Position numbers and translations under genes: made by a program. Below, in pieces: positions 29,901-64,000 of a stretch of DNA of 64,000 nt (position 1 is its first letter; each line of letters starts with the position of its first letter). Under the pieces are notes generated by a model. It was not told the DNA's origin. It did no database searches and worked only from the letters and a program-made list of their open reading frames with translations. The DNA comes from Heptranchias perlo (taxonomy: Eukaryota). The stretch spans positions 24,738,001-24,802,000 of the forward strand of contig NC_090359.1 in the NCBI RefSeq assembly GCF_035084215.1, written 5' to 3'.

Positions 29901-32900
29901 TATTTGTTACATTATCCCCTGTCAGTTACATTGTTTTAATTTGTTACATTGTCCCCTGTCAGTTACATTGTTTCTATTTGTTACATTGTCCCCTGTCAGT
30001 TACATTGTTTCTATTTGTTACATTGTCCCCTGTCAGTTACATTGATTCTGTTTGTTACATTGTTTCTATTTGTTACATTGTCCCCTGTCAGTTACATTGT
30101 TTCTATTTGTCACATTGTCCTGTCAGTTACATTGTTTCTATTTGTTACATTATCGCCTGTCAGTTACATTGTTTCTATTTGTTACATTGTCCCCTGTCAG
30201 TTACATTGTTTCTATTTGTTACATTGTCCCCTGTCAGTTACATTGTTTCAATTTGTTACATTGTCCCCTGTCAGTTACATTGTTTCTATTTGTCACATTG
30301 TCCCCTGTCAGTTACATTGTTTCTATTTGTTACATTGTTTCTATTTGTCACATTGTCCCCTGTCAGTTACATTGCTGCTATTTGTTACATTGTCCCCTGT
30401 CAGTTACATTGTTTCTATTTGTTACATTGTCCCCTGTCAGTTACATTGTTTCTATTTGTCACATTGTCCTGTCAGTTACATTGTTTCTATTTGTTACATT
30501 GTCCCCTGTCAGTTACATTGTTTCTATTTGTTACATTGTTTCTATTTGTTACACTGTCCCCTGTCAGTTACATTGTTTCTATTTGTCACATTGTCCTGTC
30601 AGTTACATTGTTTCTATTTGTTACATTGTCCCCTGTCAGTTACATTGTTTCTATTTGTTACATTGTCCCCTGTCAGTTACATTGTTTCTATTTGTCACAT
30701 TGTCCTGTCAGTTACATTGTTTCTATTTGTTACATTGTCCCCTGTCAGTTACATTGTTTCTATTTGTTACATTGTCCCCTGTCAGTTACATTGTTTCTAT
30801 TTGTCACATTGTCCTGTCAGTTACATTGTTTCTATTTGTTACATTGTCCCCTGTCAGTTACATTGTTTCTATTTGTTACATTGTCCCCTGTCAGTTACAT
30901 TGTTTCTATTTGTTACATTGTTTCTATTTGTTACATTATCGCCTGTCAGTTACATTGTTCTATTTGTCACATTGTCCCCTGTCAGTTACATTGTTTCTAT
31001 TTGTTACATTGTTTCTATTTGTCACATTGTCCTGTCAGTTACATTGTTTCTATTTGTTACATTGTCCCCTGTCAGTTACATTGATTCTGTTTGTTACATT
31101 GTTTCTATTTGTCACATTGTCCCCTGTCAGTTACATTGTTTCTATGTGTTACATTGTTTCTATTTGTCACATTGTCCCCTGTCAGTTACATTGTTTCTAT
31201 TTGTCACATTGTCCCCTGTCAGTTACATTGTTTCTATTTGTCACATTGTCCCCTGTCAGTTACATTGTTTCTATTTGTCACATTGTCCCCTGTCAGTTAC
31301 ATTGTTTCTATTTGTTACATTGTCCCCTGTCAGTTACATTATTTCTATTTGTTACATTGTTTCTATTTGTCACATTGTCCCCTGTCAGTTACATTGTTTC
31401 TATTTGTCACATTGTCCCCTGTCAGTTACATTGTTTCTATTTGTCACATTGTCCCCTGTCAGTTACATTGTTTCTATTTGTCACATTGTCCCCTGTCAGT
31501 TACATTGTTTCTATTTGTTACATTGTCCCCTGTCAGTTACATTGTTTCTATTTGTTACATTGTCCCCTGTCAGTTACATTGTTTCTATTTGTCACATTGT
31601 CCTGTCAGTTACATTGTTTCTATTTGTTACATTGTCCCCTGTCAGTTACATTGTTTCTATTTGTCACATTGTCCTGTCAGTTACATTGTTTCTATTTGTC
31701 ACATTGTCCCCTGTCAGTTACATTGTTTCTATTTGTCACATTGTCCCCTGTCAGTTACATTGTTTCTATTTGTCACATTGTCCCCTGTCAGTTACATTGT
31801 TTCTATTTGTTACATTGTCCCCTGTCAGTTACATTGTTTCTATTTGTTACATTGTCCCCTGTCAGTTACATTGTTTCTATTTGTCACATTGTCCTGTCAG
31901 TTACATTGTTTCTATTTGTCACATTGTCCCCTGTCAGTTACATTGTTTCTATTTGTTACATTGTCCTGTCAGTTACATTGTTTCTATTTGTTACATTGTC
32001 CCCTGTCAGTTACATTGTTTCTATTTGTTACATTGTCCCCTGTCAGTTACATTGTTTCTATTTGTTACATTGTCCCCTGTCAGTTACATTGTTTCTATTT
32101 GTTACATTGTCCCCTGTCAGTTACATTGTTTCTATTTGTTACATTGTCCCCTGTCAGTTACATTGTTTCTATTTGTTACATTGTCCCCTGTCAGTTACAT
32201 TGTTTCTATTTGTTACATTGTCCCCTGTCAGTTACATTGTTTCTATTTGTTACATTGTTTCTATTTGTTACACTGTCCCCTGTCAGTTACATTGTTTCTA
32301 TTTGTCACATTGTCCCCTGTCAGTTACATTGTTTCTATTTGTTACATTGTCCCCTGTCAGTTACATTGTTTCTATTTGTTACATTGTCCCCTGTCAGTTA
32401 CATTGTTTCTATTTGTTACATTGTCCCCTGTCAGTCACATTGTTTCTATTTGTTACATTGTTTCTATTTGTTACACTCTCCCCTGTCAGTTACATTGTTT
32501 CTATTTGTCACATTGTCCCCTGTCAGTTACATTGTTTCTATTTGTTACATTGTCCCCTGTCAGTTACATTGTTTCTATTTGTTACATTGTCCCCTGTCAG
32601 TTACATTGTTTCTATTTGTTACATTGTCCCCTGTGAGTTACATTGTTTCTATTTGTTACATTGTTTCTATTTGTTACACTGTCCCCTGTCAGTTACATTG
32701 TTTCTATTTGTCACATTGTCCCCTGTCAGTTACATTGTTTCTATTTGTTACATTGTTTCTATTTGTTACATTGTTTCTATTTGTCACATTGTCCCCTGTC
32801 AGTTACATTGTTTCTATTTGTTACATTGTCCCCTGTCAGTTACATTGTTTCTATTTGTTACATTGTCCCCTGTCAGTTACATTGTTTCTATTTGTTACAT

Positions 32901-35390
32901 TGTCCCCTGTCAGTTACATTGTTTCTATTTGTTACATTGTTTCTATTTGTTACACTGTCCCCTGTCAGTTACATTGTTTCTATTTGTCACATTGTCCCCT
33001 GTCAGTTACATTGTTTCTATTTGTTACATTGTTTCTATTTGTTACATTGTTTCTATTTGTTACATTGTTTCTATTTGTTACACTGTCCCCTGTCAGTTAC
33101 ATTGTTTCTATTTGTTACATTGTCCCCTGTCAGTTACATTGTTTCTATTTGTTACATTGTCCCCTGTCAGTTACATTGTTTCTATTTGTTACATTGTTTC
33201 TATTTGTTACATTGTTTCTATTTGTTACATTGTTTCTATTTGTTACATTGTTTCTATTTGTCACATTGTCCCCTGTCAGTTACATTGTTTCTATTTGTTA
33301 CATTGTTTCTATTTGTTACATTGTTTCTATTTGTTACATTGTTTCTATTTGTCACATTGTCCCCTGTCAGTTACATTGTTTCTATTTGTTACATTGTCCC
33401 CTGTCAGTTACATTGTTTCTATTTGTTACATTGTCCCCTGTCAGTTACATTGTTTCTATTTGTTACATTGTCCCCTGTCAGTTACATTGTTTCTATTTGT
33501 TACATTGTTTCTATTTGTTACACTGTCCCCTGTCAGTTACATTGTTTCTATTTGTCACATTGTCCCCTGTCAGTTACATTGTTTCTATTTGTTACATTGT
33601 TTCTATTTGTTACATTGTTTCTATTTGTTACACTGTCCCCTGTCAGTTACATTGTTTCTATTTGTTACATTGTCCCCTGTCAGTTACATTGTTTCTATTT
33701 GTTACACTGTCCCCTGTCAGTTACATTGTTTCTATTTGTTACACTGTCCCCTGTCAGTTACACTGTTTCTATTTGTTACATTGTCCCCTGTCAGTTACAT
33801 TGTTTCTATTTGTTACATTGTCCCCTGTCAGTTACATTGTTTCTATTTGTTACATTGTTTCTATTTGTTACACTGTCCCCTGTCAGTTACATTGTTTCTA
33901 TTTGTCACATTGTCCCCTGTCAGTTACATTGTTTCTATTTGTTACATTGTTTCTATTTGTTACATTGTTTCTATTTGTTACACTGTCCCCTGTCAGTTAC
34001 ATTGTTTCTATTTGTTACATTGTCCCCTGTCAGTTACATTGTTTCTATTTGTTACACTGTCCCCTGTCAGTTACATTGTTTCTATTTGTTACATTGTCCC
34101 CTGTCAGTTACATTGTTTCTATTTGTTACATTGTCCCCTGTCAGTTACATTGTTTCTATTTGTTACATTGTCCCCTGTCAGTTACATTGTTTTTATTTGT
34201 TACATTGTCCCCTGTCAGTTACATTGTTTCTATTTGTTACACTGTCCCCTGTCAGTTACATTGTTTCTATTTGTTACATTGTCCCCTGTCAGTTACATTG
34301 TTTCTATTTGTTACATTGTCCCCTGTCAGTTACATTGTTTCTATTTGTTACATTGTCCCCTGTCAGTTACATTGTTTCTATTTGTTACATTGTCCCCTGT
34401 CAGTTACATTGTTTCTATTTGTTACATTGTCCCCTGTCAGTTACATTGTTTCTATTTGTTACATTGTTTCTATTTGTTACACTGTCCCTTGTCAGTTACA
34501 TTGTTTCTATTTGTCACATTGTCCCCTGTCAGTTACATTGTTTCTATTTGTTACATTGTCCCCTGTCAGTTACATTGTTTCTATTTGTTACATTGTCCCC
34601 TGTCAGTTACATTGTTTCTATTTGTTACATTGTCCCCTGTCAGTTACATTGTTTGTATTTGTTACACTGTCCCCTGTCAGTTACATTGTTTCTATTTGTT
34701 ACATTGTCCCCTGTCAGTTACATTGTTTCTATTTGTTACATTGTCCCCTGTCAGTTACATTGTTTCTATTTGTTACATTGTCCCCTGTCAGTTACATTGT
34801 TTCTATTTGTTACATTGTCCCCTGTCAGTTACATTGTTTCTATTTGTTACATTGTTTCTATTTGTTACATTGTTTCTATTTGTTACACTGTCCCCTGTCA
34901 GTTACATTGTTTCTATTTGTCACATTGTCCCCTGTCAGTTACATTGTTTCTATTTGTTACATTGTCCCCTGTCAGTTACATTGTTTCTATTTGTTACATT
35001 GTCCCCTGTCAGTTACATTGTTTCTATTTGTTACATTGTTTCTATTTGTTACATTGTTTCTATTTGTTACACTGTCCCCTGTCAGTTACATTGTTTCTAT
35101 TTGTCACATTGTCCCCTGTCAGTTACATTGTTTCTATTTGTTACATTGTCCCCTGTCAGTTACATTGTTTCTATTTGTTACATTGTCCCCTGTCAGTTAC
35201 ATTGTTTCTATTTGTTACATTGTTTCTATTTGTTACACTGTCCCCTGTCAGTTACATTGTTTCTATTTGTCACATTGTCCCCTGTCAGTTACATTGTTTC
35301 TATTTGTCACATTGTCCCCTGTCAGTTACATTGTTTCTATTTGTTACATTGTTTCTATTTGTTACATTGTTTCTATTTGTTACATTGTCC
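26972..35390 (+). repeat. 8.4-kb satellite of 18-bp (GTTACATTGTTTCTATTT) and 19-bp (GTTACATTGTCCCCTGTCA) monomers, mostly as a 37-bp dimer
   Basis: Directly visible tandem array; about 450 monomers, estimated from length. Confidence 0.98.
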
Positions 35391-35626
35391 ACTTGTTGTT
35401 TTCCCCTTTCTCTCCCTCTCATTCGCCGTCCCACTCCTTCCGGCGCTGTTGCGGGATCCGCTCCTCGGTTGCTCTCTGCTGCCGCCTCATTCTGTCTTCT
35501 TGTCGGTCTCTGTGCTGAGCAGGAAGCCTGTGTGGTCCGAGAGCCGAGAGCCGAGAGCCGAGCCGCCGGGTTAAAGCCTTGAGCCACATTTCGGCACAGA
35601 GAAAACCAACGCTCCCTGTCCCCGCC

Positions 35627-35711
35627 ATGGGCACCTACGGACCGGCTAACGAGAAACTCCGCAACCTGGAGGAGATCGAGAAGGAGATCGCGACCATCCT
35701 TCAGAGCGCAG
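35627..35711 (+). CDS. MED11: Mediator subunit 11, coding exon 1 (MGTYGPANEKLRNLEEIEKEIATILQSA)
   Basis: GCCATGG Kozak; similar to human [29 protein letters not shown]; 85 nt, G|GT donor. Confidence 0.93.
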
Positions 35712-36300
35712 GTGGGAGGGAGAGTGAGTGGGAGGAAAGAGAGAGGGGGCAGAGAGAGAGAGAACAAAGAGATGAGAGAAAGGAGAGAGGGATGAGAGGG
35801 GGAAGAGAGAGGGAAAGGAGAGAGGGATGAGAGGGGCAAGAGAGAGGGAAAGGAGAGAGGGAAGAGAGAGGGAAAGGAGAGAGGGAAGAGAGGGGGAACA
35901 GAGAGAGAGAAAGGAGAGGGGAACAGAGAGGGAAAGGAGAGAGGGATGAGAGGGGGAAGAGAGAGAAAGGAGGGAGAGAGGGATGAGAGGGGGAACAGAG
36001 AGGAGAGGGATGAGAGGGGGAACAGAGAGGAGAGGGATGAGAGGGGGAACAGAGAGGGAAAGGAGAGAGGGATGAGAGGGAAAGGAGAGAGAGAGGGAGG
36101 GAAAGGAAAGAGAGAGAGAAAGGATAGAGGGATGAGAGAGGGAGAGAGAGAAAGAGGGAAAGGAAAGAGAGGGAGAAAGGAGAGAGAGAGAGAGAAGGGA
36201 TGAGAGGGAGGGAAAGGAGAGAGGGAGGGAAAAAGAAAGGAGAGAGGGATGGGAGGGGGAACAGAGAGGAGAGAGAAGGGAGAGAGGGAGATGGGGAAGG
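35712..36300 (+). repeat. GA-rich polypurine tract in MED11 intron 1
   Basis: Almost only A and G on the + strand. Confidence 0.9.
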
Positions 36301-36499
36301 GGTGGGGTTCGTGTCAGGGGGCAGTTTGCTGCCCGGCGGGTGGGGTAATTCCCCCTGTTTAATGCACGGTTACATTTTACCGATGGGATTCCCACCACCA
36401 TCCGTCCCCGCCCCCAACGAGACCCCCCCCCACCAAAAAAGTGTTTTTGTGTCTGCAACCAGGCTGAGAATTAGCAAATGGTGTCCAACAGAGATGGTC

Positions 36500-37510
36500 A
36501 GCTCAAGGGGGCACGGGGCGGCGATGGGGTCAAGGGGGCACAGGGCGGCGATGGGGTCAAGGGGGCACGGGGCGGCATCGGGGTCAAGGGGGCACGGGGC
36601 GGCGTCGGGGTCAAGGGGGCACGGGGCGGCGTCGGGATTAAGGGGGCACGGGGCGGCGTCGGGGTCAAGGGGGCGCGGGGTCAAGGGGGCACGGGGCGGC
36701 GTCGGGGTCAAGGGGGCACGGGGCGGCGTCGGGGTCAAGGGGGCACGGGGCGGCGTCGGGGTCAAGGGGGCACGGGACGGCGTCGGGGTCAAGGGGGCAC
36801 GGGGGGGGTGTCGGGGTCAAGGGGGCACGGGACGGCGTCGGGGTCAAGGGGGCACGGGGCGTCGGGGTCAAGGGGGCACGGGGCGTCGACGGGGGCACGG
36901 GGCATCAACGGGGTCAAGGGGGCACGGGGCGGCGATGTTGGGGTCAAGGGGGCACGGGGCGGCATCGGGGTCAAGGGGGCACGGGGCGGCATCGGGGTCA
37001 AGGGGGCACGGGGCGGCGTCGGGATTAAGGGGGCACGGGGCGGCGTCGGGGTCAAGGGGGCGCGGGGTCAAGGGGGCACGGGGCGGCGTCGGGGTCAAGG
37101 GGGCACGGGGCGGCGTCGGGGTCAATGGGGCACGGGGCGGCGTCGGGGTCAAGGGGGCACGGGGCGGCGTCGGGGTCAAGGGGGCACGGGGCGGCGTCGG
37201 GGTCAAGGGGGCATGGGGCGTCGGGGTCAAGGGGGCACGGGGGGGTGTCGGGGTCAAGGGGGCACGGGACGGCGTCGGGGTCAAGGGGGCACGGGGCGTC
37301 GGGGTCAAGGGGGCACGGGGCGTCGACGGGGGCACGGGGCATCAACGGGGTCAAGGGGGCACGGGGCGGCGATGTTGGGGTCATGGGGGCACGGGGCGGC
37401 GATGTTGGGGTCAAGGGGGCACGGGGCGGCGATGTTGGGGGCACGGGGCGTCAACGGGGGCACGGGGCATCGACGGGGTCAGGGGGCACGGGGCGGCGGC
37501 GGGGTCAAAG
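36500..37510 (+). repeat. 27-bp G-rich minisatellite (GGGGTCAAGGGGGCACGGGGCGGCGTC) in MED11 intron 1
   Basis: Tandem copies; 9-aa period in the spurious ORFs. Confidence 0.92.
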
Positions 37511-37574
37511 GTTGACCTGTTTTGGAGAAGGTTCCTCACTCTCTAACCCGTTCTTTCCGCTCTTGGTTGCTCAG

Positions 37575-37705
37575 CCAATGCCATCCTGGAAATGTCGAAG
37601 GAGAAGCCGGCTGAACGGACCCTGGACCGTCACGCCCTGCAATTTACTGCCTCGGTCCAGCGCGTCGAAATGGAACTCTCGAGTCAGATCCGCTATCTGA
37701 CCCAG
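37575..37705 (+). CDS. MED11: MED11 exon 2 ([44 protein letters not shown])
   Basis: CAG acceptor and CAG|GTGAG donor; 131 nt, in frame with exon 1; conserved ELSxQIRYLTQ. Confidence 0.93.
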
Positions 37706-37799
37706 GTGAGCAGGAATCGGTTCAACCTCAACTGTAGATCCGTGAGGAACTGGCCCATAACTGGGGCCCTGGTGAACTCACCTGTGGCTGAACCCTCAT

Positions 37800-37972
37800 C
37801 CCCCACCCCCTCCCCCACCCCCTCCACCACCCCCTCCCCCACCCCCTCCACCACCCCCTCCCCCACCCCCTCCCCCACCCCCTCCACCACCCCCTCCCCC
37901 ACCCCCTCCACCACCCCCTCCACCACCCCCTCCCCCACCCCCTCCACCACCCCCTCCCCCACCCCCTCCACC
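37800..37972 (+). repeat. 12-bp C-rich repeat (ACCCCCTCCMCC), followed by an L2 3' fragment to about 38350
   Basis: Tandem copies, then the L2 tail GGCGCTATATAAATGC. Confidence 0.85.
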
Positions 37973-38669
37973 ATTGGCTCCCAGTCCGCCAACACCTCCA
38001 TTTTTAAAATTCTCATCCTTGCTTTCAAATCCCTCCATGGCCTCGCCCCCTCCCCTATCTCTGTAACCTCCTCCAGCCCCTACAACCCTCCGAGATCTCT
38101 GCGCTCCTCCAATTCTGGCCTTTTGCACATCCCCGATTTCCATCGCCCCACCATTGGCGGCCGTGCCTTCAGCTGTCGAGGCCCTAAGCTCTGGAATTCC
38201 CTCCCTAAACCTCTCCGCCTCTCTCTCTCTCCTCCTTAAAACCTCCCTCAGTGACCAAACTTTTTGTCGCCTGTCCTAATGTGTCAAATTTTTGCCTGAT
38301 AATCGGTCCTGTGGGACGTTTTACTACGTTAAAGGCGCTATATAAATGCAGGCTGTTATCGCACTGCCGGGCTGAGCTGAAACCCACAGTGAGACACCAG
38401 CTCCCAGGTTACTCAGCAACCCCTGGATCTCTTCCTTCCCTCTGGTTTCTCCCCCCCCCACCCCCGGACTCGGGTTCCACGCACACCCAGCGCAGCCCTC
38501 TGGCACCTCACACGAGGCCAGTCTTCATTGTATGAGCCCGAGCTATTGGATCATGGGGTGCATCGCGGCCAAGCCCATCGCCCACACGCGTGCGATCGGG
38601 AGGGGGATTGTCGACGTATTTACACACCTCTCCGCATTTCCTAACCTAGCCAATCCAATTCCACCACCT

Positions 38670-39240
38670 AGAATCATACAGCACAGGAGGAGGCCATTCG
38701 GCCCATCGTGCCTGTGCTGGCTCTTTGAAAGAGCTATCCAATTAGTCCCACTCCCCCTGCTCTTTCCCCCATAGCCCTGCAAATTTTTCCTTTTCAAGTA
38801 TTTATCCAATTCCCTTTTGAAAGTTACTATTGAATCTGCTTCCACCGCCCTTTCAGGCAGCGCGTTCCAGATCATCACAACTCGCTGCGTAAAAAATAAT
38901 TCTCCTCATCTCCCCTCTGGTTCTTTTGCCAATTATCTTCAATCTGTGTCCTCTGGTCACCGACCCTCCTGCCACTGGAAACAGTTTCTCCTTATTTACT
39001 CTATCAAAACCCCTCATGATTTTGAACACCTCGATTAAATCTCCCCTTAACCTTCTCTGTTCTGAGGAGAACAATCCCAGCTTCTCCAGTCTCTCCACGT
39101 AACTGAAGTCCCTCATCCCTGGTACCATTCTAGTAAATCTCCTCTGCACCCTCTCCGAGGCCTGGACATCCTTCCTAAAGTGCGGTGCCCAGAATTGGAC
39201 ACAATACTCCAGCTGGGGCCTAACCAGTGATTTATAAAGG
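38670..39240 (-). mobile_element. CR1 3' fragment in MED11 intron 2 (Deu-core SINE follows at about 39255-39640, +)
   Basis: Translation QRRFTRMVPGMRDFSYVERLEKLGLFS..LRGDLIEVFKI. Confidence 0.88.
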
Positions 39241-39708
39241 TAACTTCCTATTAACCCGTAGTCAGCCGCACTCTCACCTCTGAGTCAGAAGGTCGTGGGT
39301 TCAGGAGTTCTGAGCTTATAATCTCGTCTGACTCTCCCAGTGCCGGTACTGAGGGAGCGCCGCACTGTCGGAGGTGCTGTCCTTCGGATGAGACCTCAAA
39401 CCGAGGCCCCCCCCCGTCTGCCCCTCTCACGGGAGATGTAGAAGATCCCAACGGCCACTATTTCCAAGTTCTCCCCGGTGTCCTGGGCCAATATTTATCC
39501 CTCCGATTAACCGGTCAAAATATCACATTGCTGTTTGTGGGATCTTGCTGTGCGTAAATTGGCCGCTGCGTTTCCTACATTACAGCAGTGACTGCTGTTC
39601 ACTGTAAAGCCCTTTGGGACATCCTGATATAAATGCAAGGCCTTTTTTTTTTTCTTTCTTTCCCCCCCCCCCCCCCCCCGCCCCCCCCTGTCTCTTTCTC
39701 CCTCGAAG

Positions 39709-39849
39709 GTCGCTACGGGGCAGCCGCACGAAGGGTCCAGCTATTCCACCAGGAAGGATGCGCAGATGGCGGTGAATCGAGTGGAGTACACGCACATGAA
39801 AGTGCGGGACCTCGTCAAGACCTGTGAGCAGATGCTGGAGCAGCCGTGA
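39709..39849 (+). CDS. MED11: MED11 exon 3 ([46 protein letters not shown]); total 118 aa
   Basis: Long pyrimidine tract plus AAG acceptor; conserved [12 protein letters not shown] motif; TGA at 39847-39849. Confidence 0.93.
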
Positions 39850-51293: not shown

Positions 51294-51360
51294 ATGGCCG
51301 CTCCTTTCACCGTCCTGAGCTCAGCGCTATGGATAAGCCTCGTCTCGCTCCCCATTCCAG
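51294..51360 (+). CDS. Single-IgV membrane receptor, exon 1 (signal peptide MAAPFTVLSSALWISLVSLPIP)
   Basis: ACGATGG start, hydrophobic leader, phase-1 donor CAG|GTAAT; splices in frame to the V exon. Confidence 0.75.
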
Positions 51361-52034
51361 GTAATCCGGCCATTCCTACCGCTCCTCTCCTGTTTTTCCG
51401 CGCTCTCTCTCCCTTTTTGTTTTGCCGGTTTTCAAATGAGGCTTCTTCAAAGAATCGTACGGCACAGCAGGAGGCCGTTCAGCCCATCGTGCCTGTGCCA
51501 GCTCTTTGAAAGAGCCATCCAATTAATCCCACTTCCCTTTCCCCACAGCCCTGCAACTTTTTCCTTTTCAAGTGTTTATATATATATATATATAAGTAAT
51601 TCCCCCCCCCCCACCGACTTTTAAAAGTTACGATTGAATCTGCTTCCACCGCCCTTTCAGGCAGTGAATTCCAGATCATCACAACTCGCTGCGTTAAAAA
51701 AAAAAGTCTCCTCGTCTCCCCTCTAGTTCTTTTACCGATTACCTTAAATCTGCGTCCTCTGATTACCGACCCTCCTGCCAGTGGAAGTCGTCGCTCCTTA
51801 TTTACTCCATCGAAACCCTTCTCGGTTTTGCTGCGAGTGGGATCTTGCTGTGCGCAATATGGTGACGTAACAGTCACTGGCTGTACTTCAGGTGGAGCGG
51901 CGGTCCTGCTTATCGTCCCTGTCTTCGTGCCTAGCACCGTGTAAAAGCCTTGCATTGAGATTAAATCTCACCTTAACCTTCTCTGCTTTAAGGAGAACAA
52001 CACTCTCGCTTTTTCTCTTACCCCCCCCACACAG

Positions 52035-52409
52035 CTGCAATGGGGAGGTACTCGGTCTGTCAGAATCCACCTTATCTCTCCGTGCGGGAGGGTGAACCCA
52101 TCCGCATCAGTTGCAGTTTTAATTACAGCGGCCGAAGGGAGCTCGAGACTGTCGTCTTCAAATGGTTTGTGAATAATGTCACTCACCAATTAGTAAAGAC
52201 GGCTTCAAACAAGACCTACTGGAACGATTCGGAACAGGTGACGTTAGGACTGCGGATCGAGGGGGATTTAGAACGTAAATTCACGACCCTGATCGTGGAC
52301 CGTGCGACTAGAAACGACGGCGGAGTCTACGTGTGTCATGTGTCGATAATCAAACCGCTCTTAAATCAACGGGACCTTCACAGCAATGGGACTGTGGTCA
52401 CGGTACTGG
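52035..52409 (+). CDS. Single-IgV membrane receptor, exon 2 (VJ-type Ig domain; CD28/TMIGD2/NKp30-like)
   Basis: CAG acceptor, phase 1/1. V-set motifs Q-x-P, B-strand Cys, C-strand Trp, D-x-G-x-Y-x-C (Cys pair 74 residues apart) and G-strand SNGTVVTV; 5 N-glycosylation sequons. Confidence 0.9.
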
Positions 52410-52636
52410 GTAAACTCTCTTTCCTCACTGGGCGGTGGTGGTGGGTTGGCGAGGGGAGGGCGGTGGAGATGGCGGTGTTAACAATCTCATTTTTGAACAC
52501 GCGTACCCCGGTATAGACGCGTCGTCTCGTGTACGATACTACGGGCCAACTCAAGAGGTGTAATTGGACGCCAGGCACTTTAAAAACAGCGATCGTTAGG
52601 GACAATGTTAGGAGGGAGACAGAAGATGGGTTAGTG

Positions 52637-54175
52637 TTTCACGGGCACCGACTCTCACCGGGGTACGGGTTCCACGGGCACTGACTCTCACCGGGGTACG
52701 GGTTCCACGGGCACTGACTCTCACCGGGGGACAGGTTCCACGGGCACTGACTCTCACCGGGGGACAGGTTCCACGGGCACTGACTCTCACCGGGGTACGG
52801 GTTCCACGGGCACTGACTCTCACCGGGGGACAGGTTCCACAGTCACTGACTCTCACCGGGGGACAGGTTCCACGGGCACTGACTCTCACCGGGGTACGGG
52901 TTCCACGGGCACTGACTCTCACCGGGGTACGGGTTCCACGGGCACTGACTCTCACCGGGGGACAGGTTCCACAGACACTGACTCTCACCGGGGGACAGGT
53001 TCCACAGACACTGACTCTCACCGGGGGACAGGTTCCACGGGCACTGACTCTCACCGGGGTACGGGTTCCACGGGCACTGACTCTCACTGGGGTACGGGTT
53101 CCACGGGCACTGACTCTCACCGGGGGACAGGTTCCACGGGCACTGACTCTCACTGGGGTACGGGTTCCACGGGCACTGACTCTCACTGGGGTACGGGTTC
53201 CACGGGCACTGACTCTCACTGGGGTACGGGTTCCACGGGCACTGACTCTCACCGGGGTACGGGTTCCACGGGCACTGACTCTCACCGGGGTACGGGTTCC
53301 ACGGGCACTGACTCTCACCGGGGTACGGGTTCCACGGGCACTGACTCTCACCGGGGTACGGGTTCCACGGGCACTGACTCTCACCGGGGTACGGGTTCCA
53401 CGGGCACTGACTCTCACTGGGGTACGGGTTCCACAGACACTGACTCTCACTGGGGTACGGGTTCCACGGGCACTGACTCTCACTGGGGTACGGGTTCCAC
53501 AGTCACTGACTCTCACCGGGGTACGGGTTCCACAGGCACTGACTCTCACTGGGGTACAGTTCCACGGGCACTGACTCTCACTGGGGTACGGGTTCCACAG
53601 GCACTGACTCTCACTGGGGTACAGTTCCACGGGCACTGACTCTCACTGGGGTACGGGTTCCACGGGCACTGACTCTCACTGGGGTACGGGTTCCACAGAC
53701 ACTGACTCTCACTGGGGTACGGGTTCCACGGGCACTGACTCTCACTGGGGTACAGTTCCACGGGCACTGACTCTCACTGGGGTACGGGTTCCACGGGCAC
53801 TGACTCTCACTGGGGTGCGGGTTCCACAGACACTGACTCTCACCGGGGTACGGATTCCACAGACACTGACTCTCACTGGGGTACGGGTTCCACAGACACT
53901 GACTCTCACTGGGGTACGGGTTCCACAGACACTGACTCTCACTGGGGTACAGTTCCACGGGCACTGACTCTCATTGGGGTACGGGTTCCACACACACTGA
54001 CTCTCACTGGGGTACGGGTTCCACAGACACTGACTCTCACTGGGGTACGGGTTCCACAGACACTGACTCTCACTGGGGTACAGTTCCACGGTCACTGACT
54101 CTCACTGGGGTACGGGTTCCACGGGCACTGACTCTCACTGGGGTACTGGCTATTGTTCCATGGGCACTGACTCTC
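52637..54175 (+). repeat. 33-bp VNTR (TTCCACGGGCACTGACTCTCACYGGGGTACGGG) in intron 2 of the IgV gene
   Basis: About 46 tandem copies. Confidence 0.95.
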
Positions 54176-54179
54176 CCTG

Positions 54180-54960
54180 TTAGTCTCCCTGGTAAATACT
54201 GAGGCAAAGTAATTATTTAATATTTCTGCCATTTTGGCGATACTACCTGTGAGTTTATTGTGTGTATATCTTAGTGGCCCGATCCCTATCCTGATTTTTC
54301 TTTTGTTATTTATGTGTCTGTAAAATACTTTACTATTTCTTTTTATATTCCTCGATAATTTAATTTTGTAGTTTCTCTTTGCACCCTAATTGTTTTTTTA
54401 AACGTCTTTTCTAACCTTTTCATGTTCTCTTGTGTCATCCTCTCCTTTATTGTCTATGTAATTAGTGTCTGCCTTTTTCTTCAGTTTCAATTTTGCCCTG
54501 ACCTCTTTATTCAGCCATGGTGTATTATTACTGACTAGTTTGTTCTTGCTTTGTGGTGGGGTATATATCTCCTGGACTCTATTGGTCACCATTTTAAATG
54601 TTTCCCACTTCTGTTCTATTTCTTTGTTTATCATAGAATCATAGATCTTATCAGTTAATTTTTCCAGCATATTTTCCCTCGTTCCAATCTCATCCTCTGA
54701 AAATCAGCTTCCTTCCAATTTATTACTTTGGTCTTTGTCTTGCTTACGTCCTTCTCAATCTTTATCTTAAAGCTTATTATGATGTGATCGCTATTGCCTA
54801 GATGTTCCCCTACCATTACTTCCCTTATCTGCTCGGGTTCATTTCCCATTACCAGATCCAGCAGTGCTTCCTCTCTTGTTGGGCTTTTAACATACTGGGT
54901 GAGAAGGGAGTCCTAAACACACTGTAAAAAAAACTCCATTCCCTCTACCCCTTTACCTAC
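54180..54960 (-). mobile_element. Old CR1 ORF2 fragment (endonuclease-RT linker)
   Basis: Translation VGEHLGNSDHIIISF..NWKEADF..PWLNKEV. Confidence 0.75.
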
Positions 54961-55290
54961 CTCTTGGCAGTTTATTTGGCGCTATTATTCTTTGCCCTTT
55001 GCTTATTTCACTGCCCTCTGCGACCTCTCCAAAGTGCTCATTCTTCGTGGACAGACCCGGATAGTGAGAGTCAGCTTGCTATTTGACTGTGGGTGGCATC
55101 GCAAGTGAGCCCGATCCTGTGGTCACCACATGTCCCCACACTTTCGAGCAGGGGTTAGCGTTAAAACAGCACAGAGATGGCCAGCGTGGTAAAGGAGTCT
55201 TCGCGAGGTTGTGATTTCCACCCTGAGTGGCGAGGGGAGCTAAAAACATGACTTAGCGACGCTGGCAAATTGTTTCCTCTCGTGTTTTAG

Positions 55291-55392
55291 ATGCGAAAGC
55301 GGCCTCCTCGCCCATTTTCTACGTGACCATGAGCGGACTGGCCCTGGGCCTCTTGCTCACCGTTTGCCTGTTAACGAGGACAGCCTGCCGAG
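55291..55392 (+). CDS. Single-IgV membrane receptor, exon 3 (stalk + TM: DAKAASSPIFYVTMSGLALGLLLTVCLLTRTACR)
   Basis: TTTTAG acceptor, G|GTAAGA donor, phase 1/1; about 20-aa uncharged hydrophobic segment followed by Arg residues. Confidence 0.8.
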
Positions 55393-55639
55393 GTAAGATG
55401 CTTTCCGTCTCTCTCTTCCACTTTCTTCCCCCCTGTCAACTCACACTGCGGGGGCTGGGAGGGGGGTGGGGGGCGCAGTCATTCGTTCTCGGGAGCAGGG
55501 CGCCGTTCGGCAAGGCTGCATTGGTCCTCCGCCGCTGGTTACCCTCAGAAGGTGGCGGTGGGCCTTCTGCTTGAACCGCTGCGGCCCCTGTGGTGATGGG
55601 GCTCCAAGTGGTGGGATTTGGAGGATTTGCACCGCAGCA

Positions 55640-55965
55640 ACTCGCCAAGGCTTCTCCGACAGCACCTCCCAAACCCGCGGCCTCTACCACCTAGAAGGAC
55701 AAGGGCAGCGGGCACATGGGAACAACACCACCTGCACGTTCCCCTCCAAGTCACACACCATCCCGACTTGGAAATATATCGGCCGTTCCTTCATCGTCGC
55801 TGGGTCAAAATCCTGGAACTCCCTTCCTAACAGCACTGTGGGAGAACCGTCACCACACGGACTGCAGCGGTTCAAGAGGGCGGCTCACCACCACCTTCTC
55901 AAGGGGCATCTCAGGATGAGCAATAAATGCCGGCCTCGCCAGCGACACCCACATCCCGAGAATGA
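55640..55965 (+). mobile_element. Non-LTR retrotransposon 3' end (clade uncertain, RTE-X-like); related pieces at about 4290-4375, 17215-17330 and 55500-55620
   Basis: Translation SFIVAGSKSWNSLP..LQRFKRAAHHHLLKG; recurs in the window. Confidence 0.6.
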
Positions 55966-56180
55966 ATTTTTAAAAAACGACCCTGCCTTTCATCTAGTAG
56001 CCTGTGGGCTGAGGCTCCTGAGTTTCTATGGTTTAGTTCTGAGTGGTGTTTAGTGTCTGTCTCAAATTATGAAACACAATAAAGGTGACACATCAACTGA
56101 CATTTAAAACGGGGATCAAAGCACAAAATTAATTTCTTTAATGAGCCCATTTTGTGTCTCACATGTACAGTCTGTACGAT

Positions 56181-56508
56181 TCCATCAAACACTCCCAGGG
56201 CAGGTACAGCAAGGGTTAGATACAGAGTAAAGCTCCCTCTACACTGTCCCATCAAACACTCCCAGGGCAGGTACAGCATGGGTTAGATACAGAGTAAAGC
56301 TCCCTCTACACTGTCCCAACAAACACTCCCGGGTTAGATACAGAGTAAAGCTCCCTCTACATGTCCCATCAAACACTCCCAGGGCAGGAACAGCACGGGT
56401 TAGATACAGAGTAAAGCTCCCTCTACGCTGTCCCATCAAACACTCCCAGGGCGGGTACAGCATAGGTTAGATTCAGAGTAAAGCTCCCTCTCCGCTGTCC
56501 CATCAAAC
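56181..56508 (+). repeat. 67-bp minisatellite array
   Basis: About 5 copies. Confidence 0.9.
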
Positions 56509-56653
56509 AACAATGAGATGCACGGCCGATTAATCTGTCTTTTGGTGGCGTTTGTAACCCGAGGAGTGTTGCCTCAGGGCGGCATTATTGCAGGGCTTGA
56601 CCAGCTGCTTAACGAACTGATCATAAGATTTTCTATTTCTGTACTTTATCTAG

Positions 56654-56733
56654 GAAATGTTGACAAAACAGCGCAGGCCTCCCCCACAAGTGGACAAGAG
56701 CCCTGCAGCAGTCAGTATAATAATGACCCACAG
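56654..56733 (+). CDS. Single-IgV membrane receptor, exon 4 (cytoplasmic GNVDKTAQASPTSGQEPCSSQYNNDPQ); terminal exon not identified
   Basis: T-rich tract plus TAG acceptor; consensus CAG|GTGAGT donor; open in the frame set by exon 3. Confidence 0.65.
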
Positions 56734-57520
56734 GTGAGTCAGGATCTGTGCACTTAGAGAGTGTGGTCAATCACCCATGGCATTCCGCATAGGGAGTTCA
56801 GATCAAGTGTAACCATCAGGTGAAGTGGGGGATAATGGAACCAGGGTTCGCAGACAGCATTCAGTCCCCGTTTTAAAGCTATACCTTCCATCGTTAATTG
56901 TAATTAATACTTTGATTTGATATTATTATTTACATCTAAATAGGAAGCTGAGGGCAATTTGGGGGGGGGCCAAGAAGTAGAGTTCATTGGAGCACAAGAG
57001 TTTCTCTGGAGTGCAGGCTATGGGGCTGGGAGACGTGAAACTGAGGGGCTACAGCGCCGCCAGTGGTGGGAGGGTGTATTCACAGCGTGACACGTTTACG
57101 TAGGTTATTTCCATTGTAAACAGGGGCATGGGGAATTTATAATGGCGAAAGTCAATGCAAAAATGTGACAATAGGATGCAGCTTTCCAAGATAGGACGTG
57201 TACACAGATGTAAAACTTAAAAAAAATATATATATTCCAGATGTCTCGAAAGTAAAGTTAAAAAAATTGTAAAGAGGTGGGTGAGCAGCGGGTTAAACAC
57301 TGACCTTTGAACTCAGGGACTTGAGCTGAACCCAGCCTCCTGGGCTGAAGGCCTCCTGTATTTCCTGGGTCTGTGGTTCAACGTGACAGAGTGTGAGTAA
57401 TCTCCTCGAAACAGTTTCACATTGACAGAAGTTGAAAAGCTCTCCTGTTTTCATCAGTCATCTCCAAACTGCACACAATAACAACTTTTAAAAATGGAAA
57501 TAGGAACTTGGAACAGCTCA

Positions 57521-58363
57521 GAGACAGAGTAAAGCTCCCTCTACACTGTCCCGTCAAACACTCCCAGGGCAGGTACAGCACGGGTTAGATACAGAGTAAA
57601 GCTCCCTCTACACTGTCCCATCAAACACTCCCAGGACAGCTTACAGCACGGGTTAGATACAGAGTAAAGCTCCCTCTACACTGTCCCGTCAAACACTCCC
57701 AGGGCAGGTTACAGCATGGGTTTGATACAGAGTAAAGCTCCCTCTACACTGTCCCATCAAACACTCCCAGGGCAGGTACAGCACGGGTTAGATACAGAGT
57801 AAAGCTCCCTCTACACTGTCCCATCAAACACTCCCCGGGCAGGTACAGCACGGGTTAGATACAGAGTAAAGCTCCCTCTACACTGTCCCGTCAAACACTC
57901 CCGGGGCAGGTACAGCACGGGTTAGATACAGAGTAAAGCTCCCTCTACACTGTCCCATCAAACACTCCCAGGGCGGGTACAACACGGGTTAGATACAGAG
58001 TAAAGCTCCCTCTACACTGTCCCATCAAACACTCCCAGGGCGGGTACAACACGGGTTAGATACAGAGTAAAGCTCCCTCTACACTGTCCCATCAAACACT
58101 CCCAGGGCGGGTACAACACGGGTTAGATACAGAGTAAAGCTCCCTCTACACTGTCCCATCAAACACTCCCAGGGCAGGTACAGCACGGGTTAGATACAGA
58201 GTAAAGCCCCCTCTACACTGTCCCATCAAACACTCCCAGGGCAGGTACAGCACGGGTTAGATACAGAGTAAAGCTCCCTCTACACTGTCCCATCAAACAC
58301 TCCCAGGGCAGGTACAGCATGGGTTAGATACAGAGTAAAGCTCCCTCTACACTGTCCCATCAA
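57521..58363 (+). repeat. 67-bp minisatellite array
   Basis: About 12.5 copies. Confidence 0.95.
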
Positions 58364-58519
58364 CGTAGCTCAGTCCCAACATGAGAGAACATCCCCAACT
58401 GCACAAGTGTGACATTTTTCCACTTCTGACCCTCGCCCACTTGTGACCTTTAAGTGAGATTTTGTGCAAATTAATTCTGTGTTGTGGGCAAAACTCATTT
58501 TCTCTGTGCCACATTGTTG

Positions 58520-59465
58520 TATCATAGTAGGTACAGCACAGGAGGAGGCCATTCGGCCCATCGTGCCTGTGCCGGCTCTTTCAAAGAGCTATCCAATTAG
58601 TTCCACTCCCCTGCTCTTTCCCCACAGCCCTGTAAATTTTTTCCCTTCAAGTATTTATCCAATTCCCTTTTGAAAGTTACTATTGAATCTGCTTCCATCG
58701 CCCTTTCAGGCAGCACATTCCAGATCATAACAACTCGCTGTGTAAAAAAATGTTTCCTCATGTCGCCTCTGGCTCTTTTGCCAATTATCTTAAATCTGTG
58801 TCCTCTGGTTACCGACCCTCCTGCCACTGGAAACAGTTTCTCCTTATTCACTCTCTCAAAACCCCTTCATGATTTTGAACACCTCTATTAAATCTCCTCT
58901 CAACCTTCACTGCTCGAAGGAGAACAACCCCAGCTTCTCCAGTCTCTCCACATAACTGAAGTCCCTCATCCCTGGAACCATTCTAGTAAATCTCCTCTGC
59001 ACCCTCTCCAAGGCCTTGACATCCTTCCTATAGTGTGGTGCCCAGAATTGAACACAATACTCCAGCTGAGGCCTAACCAGTGTTTTATAAAGGTTTAGCA
59101 TAACATCCTTGATTTTGTACTCTGTGCCTCTATTAATAAAGCCCAGGATCCCATATGCTTTTTTAACAGCCTTCTCAACTTGTCCTGCCACCTCCAATGA
59201 TTTGTGCACATACACCCCCAGGTCTCTCTGTTCCTGCACCCCCTTTAAAATTGTACCATTTAGTTTATTTTGCCTCTCCTCATTCTTCCTACCAAAACGA
59301 ATCACTTCACACTTCTCTGCATTAAATTTCATCTGCCACGTGTCCACCCATTTCACCAGTCTGTCTATATCCTCCTGAAGTCTGTTACCATCCTCCACAT
59401 TGTTTACTACATTTCCGAGTTTCGTGTCATCTGCAAACTTTGAAATTTTACCCTCTGAACCCATA
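58520..59465 (-). mobile_element. CR1 3' fragment
   Basis: Translation ISKFADDTKLG..LVRPQLEYCVQFWAP. Confidence 0.9.
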
Positions 59466-59589
59466 TTTATTTATATAATGATTTATATAATGTGTTCATC
59501 ACAATCCAAGTCCTGCATTTTGTATAACATGTCAACAAATTACAACTGGACAACATTTCAGTGGGATGAGAACAGATCTGGCCCGGGTA

Positions 59590-62470
59590 AATTGGAATCA
59601 AAGATTGACAGGCAAAACTGTAATTGAACAGTGGGCGGCCTTTAAGGAGGAGATGGTTTGGGTACAGTCTAGGTACATTCTCACAAGGGGGAAAGGGAGG
59701 GGGCAACTAAAGCCAGAGCTCCCTGGATGACGAAAGAGATAGAGAGTAAGATGAAACAGAAAAAATGGGCGTATGACAGATGTCAGGTTGATATCACAAG
59801 TGAGAACCAGGCAGAATATAGAAAGTTCAGAGGGGAAGTGAAAAAGGAAATAAGAGGGGCAAAGAGAGATTATGAGAATAGACTGGCGGCCAACATAAAA
59901 GGGAATCCAAAAGTCTTCTACAGGCATGTAAACAGTAAACGGGTAGTAAGAGGAGGGGTGGGGCCGATTAGGGGCCATAAAGGAGATCTACTCATGGAGG
60001 CAGAGGGGATGGCCGAGGTACTAAATGAGTACTTTGTATCTGTCTTTAACAAGGAAGAAGATGCTGCCAGAGTCTCAGTAAAAGGAAGATATAGTTGAGA
60101 TACTGGATGGGCTAAAAATTGATAAAGAAGAGGTACTAGAAAGGCTAGCTATACTTAAAGTAGATAAGTCACCCGGTCCGGATGGGATGCATCCTAGGTT
60201 GCTGAGGGAAGTAAGGGTGGAAATTGCGGAGGTACTGGCCATAATCTTCCAAACATCCGTAGATACGGGAGGGTGCCAGAGGACTGGAGAATTGCAAATG
60301 TTACACCCTTGTTCAAAAAAGGGTGTACGGATAAACCCAGCAACTACAGGCCAGTCAGTTTAACCTCAGTGGTGGGGAAACTTTTAGAAACAATAATCTG
60401 GGACAGAATTAACAGTCACTTGGATGAGTGTGGATTGATTAGGGAAAGCCAGCACGGATTTGTTAAAGGCAAATCGTGTTTAACTAACCTGATAGAGTTT
60501 TTTGATGAGGTAACAGAGAGGGGAGATGAGGGCAATGCAGGTGATGTGGTTTGCTAAAGTGTCGCACAGTAGGCTTATCATCAAGATTGCGGCCCATGGA
60601 ATAAAGGGGGCTGTAGCAACATAGATACAGAATTGGCTAAGTGACAGGAAACAGAGAGTAGTGGTGAACGGTTGTTTTTCGGACTGGAGGGAGGTGTACA
60701 GTGGTGTTCCCCATGGGTCGGTGCTGGGACCACTGCTTTTCTTGATATATATTAATGACTTGGACTTGGGTGTACAGGGCACAATTGCAAAATTTGCAGA
60801 TGACACAAAACAGTAGCAGTGAGGAGGATAGTGATAGACTTCAAGAGGATATAGACAGGTTGGTGGCATGGGCGGACACGTGGCAGATGAAATTTAACTC
60901 AGAGAAATGCAAAATGATACATTTCGGTAGGAAGAACGAGGAGAGGCAATATAAACTAAAGGGCACAACTCTAAAAGGGGTAGAGGAACAGAGAGATCTG
61001 GGGGTATATGTGCACAAATCATTGAAGGTGGCAGGGCAGGTTGAGAAAGCGGTTAAAAAAGTATATGGGATCTTGGGCTTTATAAATAGAGGCATAGAGT
61101 ACAACAGTATGGAAGTCATTGTGAACCTTTTATAAAACACTGGTTCGACAACAACTGGAGTATTGGGCTCGATTTTAGGAGGGAGACGGGTTGGCAGCGG
61201 GGGGTCGAATGGGCACGTGGGTAACGCGCCCAGTGAATTCGCGGAGCCCTGCACGCGATCGCAGCCTAATTGAAGCCACTTACCTTGGCTTCGCGCTGGA
61301 AAGCTGCGCAGCGGGCAGACTGCACACGCGCATCATAGGCCGTCAGCTGGAGGAGCCCTATTTAAAGGGGCAGTCCTCCACTGACTGATGCTGCAGAAAG
61401 GAGCCACAATTACAGCATGGAGCAGCCCAGGGGGAAGGCTGCTCCCAGGTTTAATGATGCCTCACTCCAGGTCCTACTGGATGGGATGAGGAGGGGGGAG
61501 GACAGAGATCTTCTCCCCGGCGGGCGGGAGGAAGCGGCCTGCCTCTGCCACCATGAAGGCGCGGCTTGAGGTGGCAGAGGGGGTCACCAGCACCACCCAC
61601 ATATCACGCACCTGCATACAGTGCAGGAGGCGCTGCAATGACCTAAGTAGGTCAGCCGAAATGAGTACACTTACTCATTCCCCTACACTCCGTCTGCCAC
61701 ATCACCGCCCCCACCCCACAACTCCTTCTGCACTGCCAACACTACTCTATCACATCACTCCTCACACCCACTCAAAGCTCATCCTCATCTTATCTGCACT
61801 TACTCACCTCGCCAGTACTCATCCCACCACGACCACTCAACCCAATCCTCATACAATCTCATGGCTCCGTCTCATACTCATCCTCTCATGCACCTCTTTC
61901 ATGGTCAGCCTCACCCACGAACCCGCCGACTCGGACGTCCGAAAATCGAGCCCATTGTGTCCAGTTCTGGGCACCGCACTTCAGGAAAGATATGAAGGCC
62001 TTAGAGAGGGTGCAAAAGAGATTTACTAGAATGACTCCAGAGATGAGGGGCTTCAGTTACGTGGATAGACTGGAGAAACTGGGGTTGTTCTCCTTGGAAC
62101 AGAGACGGTTGTGAGGAGATTTGATCGAGGTATTCAAAATCATGAAGGGTCCAGACAGAGCAGATAGAGAGAAACTGTTCCCATTGGCGGAAGGGTCGAG
62201 AACCAGAGGACATAGATTTAAGGTGATTGGCAAAAGAACCAAAGGCGACATGAGGAAAAACTTTTTTACACAGCGAGTGGTTAGGATCTGGAATGCACTG
62301 CCCGAGGGGGTGGTGGAGGCAGATTCAATCATGGCCTTCAAAAGGGAACTGGATAAGTACTTGAAAGGAAAAAAATTGCGAGGGAGTGGAACTAGCTGGA
62401 TTGCTCATGTGTAGAGCCGGCACAGACTCGATGGGCCGAATGGCCTCCTTCGGTGCTGTAACCTTTCTGT
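59590..62470 (+). mobile_element. Long decayed CR1 ORF2 interrupted by a Harbinger element (61165-61953)
   Basis: Translation PEDWRIANVTPLFKKG..NYRPVSLTSVVGK..QHGFVKGKSCLTNL; stops and frameshifts. Confidence 0.9.
61165..61953 (+). mobile_element. Short non-autonomous Harbinger (same family as 44451-46483)
   Basis: Perfect 12-bp TIR GGGCTCGATTTT/AAAATCGAGCCC; exact 3-bp TSD ATT; frameshifted Myb exon starting at ATG 61417. Confidence 0.9.
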
Positions 62471-62794
62471 GATTAAATTTAAAACAATGTACAGAAAAGG
62501 AGAGGAAGCCCATCATTTCCTGCTGGTTTTTGTTCTTGGCGTGACCTGGCGACATTAGTGGAGATAAAAGGAGAGTTTCCCTGCAGAAAACCCAGAATAA
62601 TTAGCCTCCCGTTCACCTCAATACCTATTTAGAGCATTTTCCCCACAGGGCGTAACTAAGCAGGGATCAGAACAAAAAAAAATTTTAAGTGCTAAATGCT
62701 GCTGCCAGCATTTTGTTACTTGATTGCTGTAATGGAGCTGCCCTGAAGCATACAGCGCAGTTCAAAAGCACCAACAAATCCCTGATGTCCCGAG

Positions 62795-64000
62795 CCATAA
62801 GAGATAGGAGCAGGAGTTGGCCATCCGGCCCCTCGAGCCTGCTCCGCCATTCAATGAGATCATGGCTGATTTTTACCTCAACTCCACTTTCCCGCCCTTT
62901 CCCCATATCCTTTGACCCCCTCGCTGATCAAAAATGTGTCTAACTCAGCCTTGAATGTATTCAATGACTCAGCCTCCACAGCTTTTTGGGGTAAAGAATT
63001 CCAAAGATTCACGACCCTCTGGGAGAAGAAATTCCTCCTCATTTCCGTTTTAAACATGCGACCCCTCATTCTGAGACTATGCCCCCTAGTTTTAGATTCC
63101 CCCATGAGGGGTAACATCCTCTCAGCATCTACCCTATCGAGTCCCCTCAGAATCTTGTATGTTTCAATAAGATCGCCTCTCATTCTTCTAAACTCCAATG
63201 AGTATAGACCCAACCTGTTCAATCTTTCCTCATAAGACAACCCTTCCATACCCGGAATCAACCTAGTGAACCTTCTCTGAACTGCCTCCAATGCAAGTAT
63301 GTCCTTCCTTAAATAAGGGCACCAGAACTGTACGCAGTACTCCAGGTGTGGCCTCACCAGCACCCTGTACAGTTGTAGCATGACTTCCCTGCTTTTATAC
63401 TCCATCCCCCTAGAAATAAAGGCCAATATTCCGTTTGCCTTCCGGATTACCTGCTGCACCTGTATGTTGACTTTCTGTGTTTCATGTACAAGGACACCCA
63501 GATCCCTCTGTACCGCAGCATTTTGTAGTATTTCTCCATTCAAATAATATTTTGCTTTTTTATTTTTCTTCCCAAAGTGGATGACTTCACATTTTCCCAC
63601 ATTATATTCCATCTGCCAAATTTTTGCCCATTCGCTTAACCTGTCAATATCCCTTTACAGACACTTTGTGTCCTCATCACAACTTGCTTTTCCACCTATC
63701 TTTGTATCATCAGCAAATTTGGCCACAAGACATTCTGTTCCTTCATCCAAGTCATTGATATATATTGTAAATAGTTGAGGCCCCAGCACTGATCCCTGCG
63801 GCACCCCACTAGTTACAGATTGCCATTTTGAAAATGACCCTTTAATCCCGACTCTTTGTTTTCTGTTAGTTAGCCAATCCTCTATCCATGCCAGTATATT
63901 ACCCCCAACACCATGAGCTCTTGTGCAGTAATCTTTTATGTGGCACCTTATCGAATGCCTTTTGGAAATCCAAATATACTGCATCCATTGGTTCCCCTTT
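62795..64000 (-). mobile_element. CR1 LINE RT / C-terminal region
   Basis: Translation [25 protein letters not shown] and ORF 62878..63612. Confidence 0.92.

Follow-up and report, generated by a model that had tools for sequence, protein, structure and literature searches.

An unnamed single-IgV receptor gene of the CD28/PD-1 build, with a tandem ITIM-type and ITSM tail, among B7-like genes beside MED11 in the sevengill shark Heptranchias perlo

Introduction

In mammals, the known CD28-family receptors and their B7 ligands are encoded on different chromosomes. The latest survey of the family (PMC11599192) describes nine members, all of them flanked by different genes, and the portions of its main text used here make no mention of MED11. 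Among the members found in cartilaginous fish, a tail with an ITIM (immunoreceptor tyrosine-based inhibitory motif) as well as an ITSM (immunoreceptor tyrosine-based switch motif) is described only for PD-1 in the parts of PMC12151841 drawn on, which also report that sharks possess SHP-2 as well as SHP-2L. The window analysed here is the whole stretch C38:24738001-24802000 (64,000 bp) of the sevengill shark Heptranchias perlo, and plain positions are window coordinates. It contains the first four exons of an unnamed gene downstream of MED11. This five-exon gene quite probably encodes an inhibitory checkpoint, a type I membrane receptor with a single immunoglobulin V-type (IgV) domain, the build of CD28 and PD-1, and a last exon carrying an ITIM-type motif and an ITSM. 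It adds a second ITIM/ITSM member in cartilaginous fish, and its subfamily, absent from the current census, reaches amphibians. No description of the gene or its cluster was found in the literature, of which subscription papers were scarcely covered and in which NKp30 or B7 work may name it otherwise.

Gene Structure and Transcript Evidence

Exons 1 to 4 (Table 1) all have GT-AG ends with phases 1, 1, 1 and 0, and join in frame to a product of 208 amino acids. This product is identical to the N-terminal part of RefSeq protein XP_067828269.1 (280 amino acids), named 'uncharacterized protein'. An earlier note, made from the sequence alone, had proposed these four in-frame exons as leader, IgV, uncharged transmembrane (TM) segment and tail, and the splice ends, RefSeq match and contig joins agree with it. 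A RefSeq isoform X1 of 294 amino acids uses an exon 2 acceptor at 51993, 42 bases earlier, and exon 3 is skipped in the Chiloscyllium X2 model. Exon 2 was identified as a V-set domain (Pfam E 1.2e-8). Its structure model is a regular IgV with a predicted local distance difference test score (pLDDT) of 88.5. The protein has the IgV-TM-cytoplasmic architecture of the CD28 family, with one V domain.

The GT..AG join between exons 1 and 2 was present in contigs from three of four sequencing runs. One contig from run X1, 1,644 bases long, continues past exon 2 and ends in the opening bases of exon 3. The four runs represent one unlabelled sample from one study and were used as contigs only. None of them is on record as RNA; the 'RNA' type was guessed by the tool, and they are probably RNA because spliced joints are present. 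Contig depths were not used for ranking tissues or genes.

Exon 5 was sought inside the window and none was found there. It is located 3.4 kb past the window end behind a clean acceptor, and the exon 4-5 junction is based on the RefSeq model and conservation. The earlier gene model, which ended at exon 4 and raised the question of an ITIM or ITSM in a last exon, was incomplete; exon 5 carries both motifs. The window has a second copy on C1237, which shows 97-99.6% identity across long blocks and probably represents the other haplotype. Intron 2 (window 52640-54160) and the stretch upstream of MED11 (26900-35500) contain long tandem repeats that give long spurious open reading frames.

Table 1. 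Positions of the receptor exons and of the neighbouring genes on C38.
Feature	Position	Strand	Content or remark
Exon 1	51294..51360	+	Start codon and leader peptide, phase 1; splice ends, RefSeq model, contig join to exon 2
Exon 2	52035..52409	+	Single-exon VJ-type IgV, YxCx6P FG loop, 5 N-glycan sequons
Exon 3	55291..55392	+	Short Cys-free stalk and uncharged TM helix
Exon 4	56654..56733	+	Membrane-proximal tail with non-conserved YNND, phase 0
Intron 4	56734..64000, continuing beyond window end	+	
Exon 5	C38:24805356-24805574 (window start + 67356 to 67574)		ITIM SVYSSL (Y216), ITSM TEYCTV (Y244), stop; RefSeq model and orthologues
MED11	35627..39849	+	Three exons; 11.4 kb upstream, same strand; synteny marker
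B7-like gene P0085	C38:24810793-24818058		Adjacent; starts 5.2 kb after receptor stop; leader, V, tail-less hydrophobic end
B7-like twin P0086	V at C38:24874665-24875030		With TM
Receptor R1	C38:24386367-24392575		Unnamed CD28-like single-V gene, three tail tyrosines
Receptor R2	C38:24420916-24431511		Unnamed CD28-like single-V gene, uncharged TM, repeated stalk; no tyrosine motif seen

Orthologues and Tail Motifs

Unnamed orthologues were found in Heterodontus, Scyliorhinus, Chiloscyllium and two Mobula species. V identity was 41-58% for four of the orthologues in a trimmed alignment. The YxCx6P loop is present in all six orthologous species and GNG at the G strand in five of the six. Cytoplasmic tyrosine motifs, a mark of the CD28 family, are conserved in the sharks: YxxL and a strict TxYxxV occur in 4/4 at a spacing of 24-28 residues, and two orthologues have YATV where PD-1 has YATI. 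A tandem pair like SVYSSL/TEYCTV arose in 8 of 100,000 tail shuffles, for a motif that was chosen after seeing it. Other subfamily members (P0009, P0013, P0021 and P0049) have two or three similar tyrosine motifs, and the amphibian (caecilian and axolotl) proteins have a V domain, a TM segment and two tyrosine motifs 29-31 residues apart. The word-index searches were insensitive (1, 2 and 8 hits), and absence from other vertebrates is not inferable from them. An Atlas search returned generic V-set clusters only.

The receptor is likely inhibitory and not costimulatory, because exon 5 carries a conserved ITIM-type motif and an ITSM as in PD-1 and the YxN motif is not conserved. The earlier note had favoured YxN signalling through Grb2. 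A costimulatory CD28-like receptor acting through pY-x-N and Grb2/GADS would draw on the YNND motif at Y203, but this Tyr is His, Cys or Gly in all three other sharks, there is no YxxM, and the ITIM-type motif and ITSM are kept instead (4/4); such a receptor is extremely improbable.

SLAM-family receptors activate via SAP/EAT-2-type adaptors. If the ITSM acted as a switch of this kind, the receptor would activate where such an adaptor is present. The strict TxYxxV is the best-conserved motif (4/4) and the ITIM -2 position is not conserved, both in keeping with a switch, but the distance between the two motifs and the YATV sequence agree with PD-1, in which the ITSM binds SHP-2 according to the parts of PMC12151841 used, and activation is considered very unlikely.

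The FG loop has 15 residues from Cys to SNGT and a Pro at Cys+7, as had been claimed, and YNND, an extra Cys31, a stalk without Cys and an uncharged TM segment are all present in this gene. The special likeness to CD28 that had been drawn from the loop found no support on comparison. SNGT is GNGT in 5/5 other orthologous species, and in the CD28/CTLA4 V of the same shark, which is 18% identical to this V, the loop counts 14 residues. The 15-residue loop with Pro at Cys+7 is conserved in the orthologues, but this Pro is common to CD28H, CD28X and human PD-1. The extra A-strand Cys is likewise no feature of the group, being absent in 4/4 other species whose models cover the strand.

Phylogeny and Family Placement

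A tree was constructed under WAG+F+G4 from 36 V-domain rows x 115 columns, after removal of 14 near-duplicate or distant rows; it contained no CD28HL3 and no NITR sequence. Support is given as Shimodaira-Hasegawa-like approximate likelihood ratio test/ultrafast bootstrap (SH-aLRT/UFBoot). The gene and four orthologues formed a clade (95.1/95). A larger clade (96.3/96) also included the neighbouring receptor R2, multi-V shark and skate proteins, and the caecilian and axolotl single-V proteins. Addition of the neighbouring receptor R1 was weak (83.4/56). By V-domain sequence, there is good support for an unnamed subfamily that extends beyond cartilaginous fish. Amphibian proteins with V, TM and tandem tyrosines in this subfamily, perhaps not one-to-one orthologues, argue against the loss in all bony vertebrates that had been suggested earlier.

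The approximately unbiased (AU) test rejected groupings of the orthologues with PD-1 (p 0.029) and with CD28H (p 0.005). Groupings with CD28/CTLA4 (p 0.19), the amphibian proteins (0.39) and a C28 gene (0.125) were not rejected. A clade of the subfamily and PD-1 was absent from the maximum likelihood (ML) tree and was not rejected (p-AU 0.43); PD-1 stood on a long branch. The best single-V PDB matches by sequence include PD-1 (E 0.002). Fold searches confirm IgV and do not separate families.

Named-family V candidates in this genome were located on C7 (CD28/CTLA4), C32 (CD28H), C1 (CD28HL1/2, two exons) and C6 (CD28X), with labels that are a motif reading against the descriptions in the parts of PMC11599192 consulted. 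PD-1 lies on C13, where its V, TM and YAVL/YATI tail exons were identified. Identity as the PD-1 orthologue was rejected on this separate PD-1 and on the AU result for an orthologues+PD-1 clade. A V exon on C42 is one that we take to be NKp30-like. By position, as read from the sequence, the gene is a match to none of the nine published CD28-family loci. The description as an unnamed single-V receptor of the CD28/PD-1 type is kept on these grounds and on its own clade; its deeper place is not fixed by the tree, and YxN signalling and special CD28 likeness are dropped from it.

Two further V-exon groups were observed in the same genome. At C11:48.0-54.4 Mb, six V exons have a YxCx6P loop; PPP is present in four of them, and on our reading they fit none of the nine published loci. 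C27:44852360-44895530 has, in order, a VJ-type V exon, a C1-like exon and an exon with an ITIM pair; a B7-like V exon lies about 24 kb past this tail exon.

A natural killer (NK)-type inhibitory V-only receptor, nearer to NKp30/XMIV or NITR than to CD28/PD-1 and with a B7-H6-like or non-B7 ligand, is an unlikely alternative that the V tree brings into view: a grouping of the orthologues with the NKp30-like V of C42 was not rejected (p-AU 0.49), and the tree leaves deep placement unsettled. Like NKp30 (NCR3) and NITR, the gene carries its V as one non-rearranging VJ-type exon; its orthologues have GxG. Bowfin NITR genes adjoin and lie among CD276-like genes, according to the parts of bioRxiv 2021.06.11.448072 used. 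The gene differs from NKp30 and NITR in having no charged TM residue for an ITAM adaptor and no I domain in any orthologue model; V-only NITRs exist. The separate NKp30-like V on C42 is without Pro at Cys+7, and the ML tree gives the gene its own clade (96.3/96).

Genomic Neighbourhood and B7-Like Genes

MED11 upstream of the receptor, as the earlier note had placed it, was established exon by exon, with Pfam Med11 on two exons; a genome-wide Pfam Med11 search gave no match. C38 at 24.2-24.9 Mb begins, on the minus strand, with V exons that are PILR/Siglec-like and with a B7-like V. These are followed by a B7-like gene, receptor R1, a LECT2-like gene, receptor R2 and a B7-like gene, then by a NAIP/NLRC4-like gene, two trypsin-family exons (read as C1r/C1s-like), beta-arrestin and MED11. 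This receptor and one B7-like gene come next; an amine oxidase and a further B7-like gene close the order. The cluster spans 0.6 Mb and interleaves five B7-like V-domain genes with three receptors. Beta-arrestin 2 and MED11 are presumably markers of human 17p13.

The adjacent B7-like gene P0085 has a single V, its best PDB match is CD276, and its hydrophobic end is predicted to be of the glycosylphosphatidylinositol (GPI) type. A second Cys pair is common to all five B7-like copies. P0085 and its twin P0086 share only the V exon, which is 98% identical over 506 bp (24816651-24817156 and 24874574-24875079); their leaders and C-termini are unrelated (GPI-type and TM, respectively), and both V exons are also found on C1237. 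The shared exon suggests exon conversion or recent exon duplication. Contigs from all four runs cover a B7-like V exon and match the twin P0086. There were 16 genome matches of the P0085 V. The best of these, C1237 duplicates aside, were four in the cluster, and the fifth cluster copy ranked behind one C27 and one C29 exon. The closest relatives of the P0085 V lie on C38 at 24.27-24.87 Mb. In the Mobula birostris model P0005, receptor and B7-like gene are fused and their order is unchanged; by this one model, the adjacency is common to a ray. B7-like orthologues were also found in three more rays and one sawshark.

The ligand could be a neighbouring B7-like protein, a tentative assignment held at somewhat less than even confidence. 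A complex prediction for the receptor V and the adjacent B7-like V (alignments unused) scored 0.23 with the mark at 0.34 and counts neither way. CD80/86 is probably not bound, because the FG loop is without the PPP motif. The interleaving of receptor and B7-like genes gives a short list of ligand candidates and bears on the origin of CD28/B7 receptor-ligand pairs. The receptor of B7-H3 is debated. The B7-like genes of this cluster are nearest to B7-H3 among solved structures, which is a lead only.

Several other exons were observed in the region. A LECT2-like peptidase M23 exon (C38:24411371-24411538) lies between R1 and R2, and model P0009 of another record fuses a LECT2-like domain to subfamily V domains; the linkage of LECT2-like gene and receptor may be conserved. 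Four minus-strand PILR/Siglec-like V exons and an exon with two ITIM-type motifs lie at C38:24206492-24252433. Between the cluster halves, at C38:24538289-24628079, lie the NAIP/NLRC4-like gene, with BIR and an NLRC4 helical domain, and the two trypsin-family domains, each in a single exon. A mucin-like stalk and TM exon was seen at C38:24922024-24922284 (minus), the strand expected for CXCL16. No chemokine domain was found near this exon at 24.922 Mb, and CXCL16 identity is not supported.

Proposed Function and Origin

For the inhibitory checkpoint proposed above, a B7-type ligand would bind the receptor V and a kinase would phosphorylate both tail tyrosines. The tandem SH2 domains of SHP-2/SHP-1 would be recruited to the tail, and the recruited phosphatases would damp lymphocyte activation. 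These tail steps are modelled on PD-1 as described in the parts of PMC12151841 used. Expression on lymphocytes would be expected from PD-1 biology.

Several observations weigh against this proposal. The ITIM -2 position is strict in only one of the four sharks (T, A and T in the others), and the models of both ray species are without exon 5, so that conservation is seen in sharks only. V-domain identity to this shark's PD-1 is just 16%; PD-1 residue Y68 and the N116 sequon are missing, with Phe after Trp and NDG in place of NDS/NNS. In the fold search, Siglec-15, T-cell receptor V and PILRA, with Z 14.8-14.4, rank level with or higher than PD-1, with Z 13.7, and the grouping with the NKp30-like V, described above, counts on the same side. 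PILR-like, NLR and protease genes lie in the same region, which may be a general immune-gene cluster where linkage says little about binding. Function and tissue are proposed from sequence and from PD-1 biology, and the runs are one unlabelled sample.

Both the p53 and the Dishevelled family have genes on C13, C35 and C38. C38 is likely paralogous to PD-1's chromosome because these families, two marker families only, are common to C13 and C38. It is possible that the subfamily is a PD-1 ohnologue, a paralogue from the two rounds (2R) of vertebrate genome duplication. A wider proposal is rather doubtful: that a second checkpoint axis of the PD-1 type arose together with PD-1 in those duplications, that the receptor subfamily and its own GPI-type and transmembrane B7-like ligands are interleaved within a single cluster, and that sharks, rays and amphibians have retained this axis and mammals have lost it beside MED11.

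Comparison With Known Systems

The conserved F-strand Arg is the sialic acid-binding residue of Siglec/PILR proteins. Siglec/PILR identity was rejected, as this position is His, Cys, Val, Ala, His and Asp in the six species.

CD28, CTLA4 and ICOS have in common with this gene the Pro at Cys+7 and NGT at the G strand. Identity with them was rejected: the gene has no PPP in complementarity-determining region 3 (CDR3), no stalk Cys, TM YxxxxT, YxxM or three-gene cassette, and the shark has its own CD28/CTLA4 V on C7. CD28H/TMIGD2, CD28HL1, CD28HL2 and CD28X share the YxCx6P loop and VJ-type exon, and the candidates of this shark have 24-26% V identity to the gene. They differ in that this gene is without EIP or PPP and without a conserved YxN or YEDM. 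Identity as CD28H, CD28HL1 or CD28HL2 was rejected on the missing EIP motif, the missing YxN or YESF tail and the AU result for a CD28H grouping.

CD28HL3 is compared by description. It has a single V, an FG-loop Pro, a GNGT-type G strand, a TM segment and two inhibitory-type tyrosine motifs, mostly 27-40 residues apart, and the parts of PMC11599192 used report it only in ray-finned fish, with other flanking genes, and not in Chondrichthyes. A cartilaginous-fish counterpart of CD28HL3 at another locus would account for these likenesses, and the likely syntenic site, at the AMPK-beta gene on C28, showed no V exon in the surrounding 200 kb. The flanks, however, are PRKAB1/PLA2G1B/TMEM233 against beta-arrestin/MED11/amine oxidase here, with AMPK-beta genes on C28 and C9; I, A, V or L precedes the FG Pro against Lys or Arg in this gene; and a single-V-TM gene 1.8 Mb from the AMPK-beta gene is another candidate. 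A counterpart is judged quite unlikely. That single-V-TM gene, at C28:10197641-10199700, is a possible chondrichthyan CD28HL3; a search of the 40 kb that follow its V exon at 10.2 Mb gave no ITIM pair, and its tail was not found.

PD-1 has in common with this gene a single IgV, no stalk Cys, an uncharged TM segment and a phase-0 last exon with ITIM and ITSM. This shark's PD-1 has the same intron phases behind its V and TM exons and ahead of its last exon. Motif spacing in PD-1 is 25 (Y223/Y248 in the parts of PMC12151841 used; 25 also in this shark's PD-1) compared to 24-28 here. PD-1 differs in its long Ser/Thr stalk, which is missing in this gene, and in its ITIM, which is YAVL/YGEL compared to YSSL here. 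The orthologues of this gene have a GxG-type G strand, unlike PD-1, and candidate ligand genes are linked to this gene.

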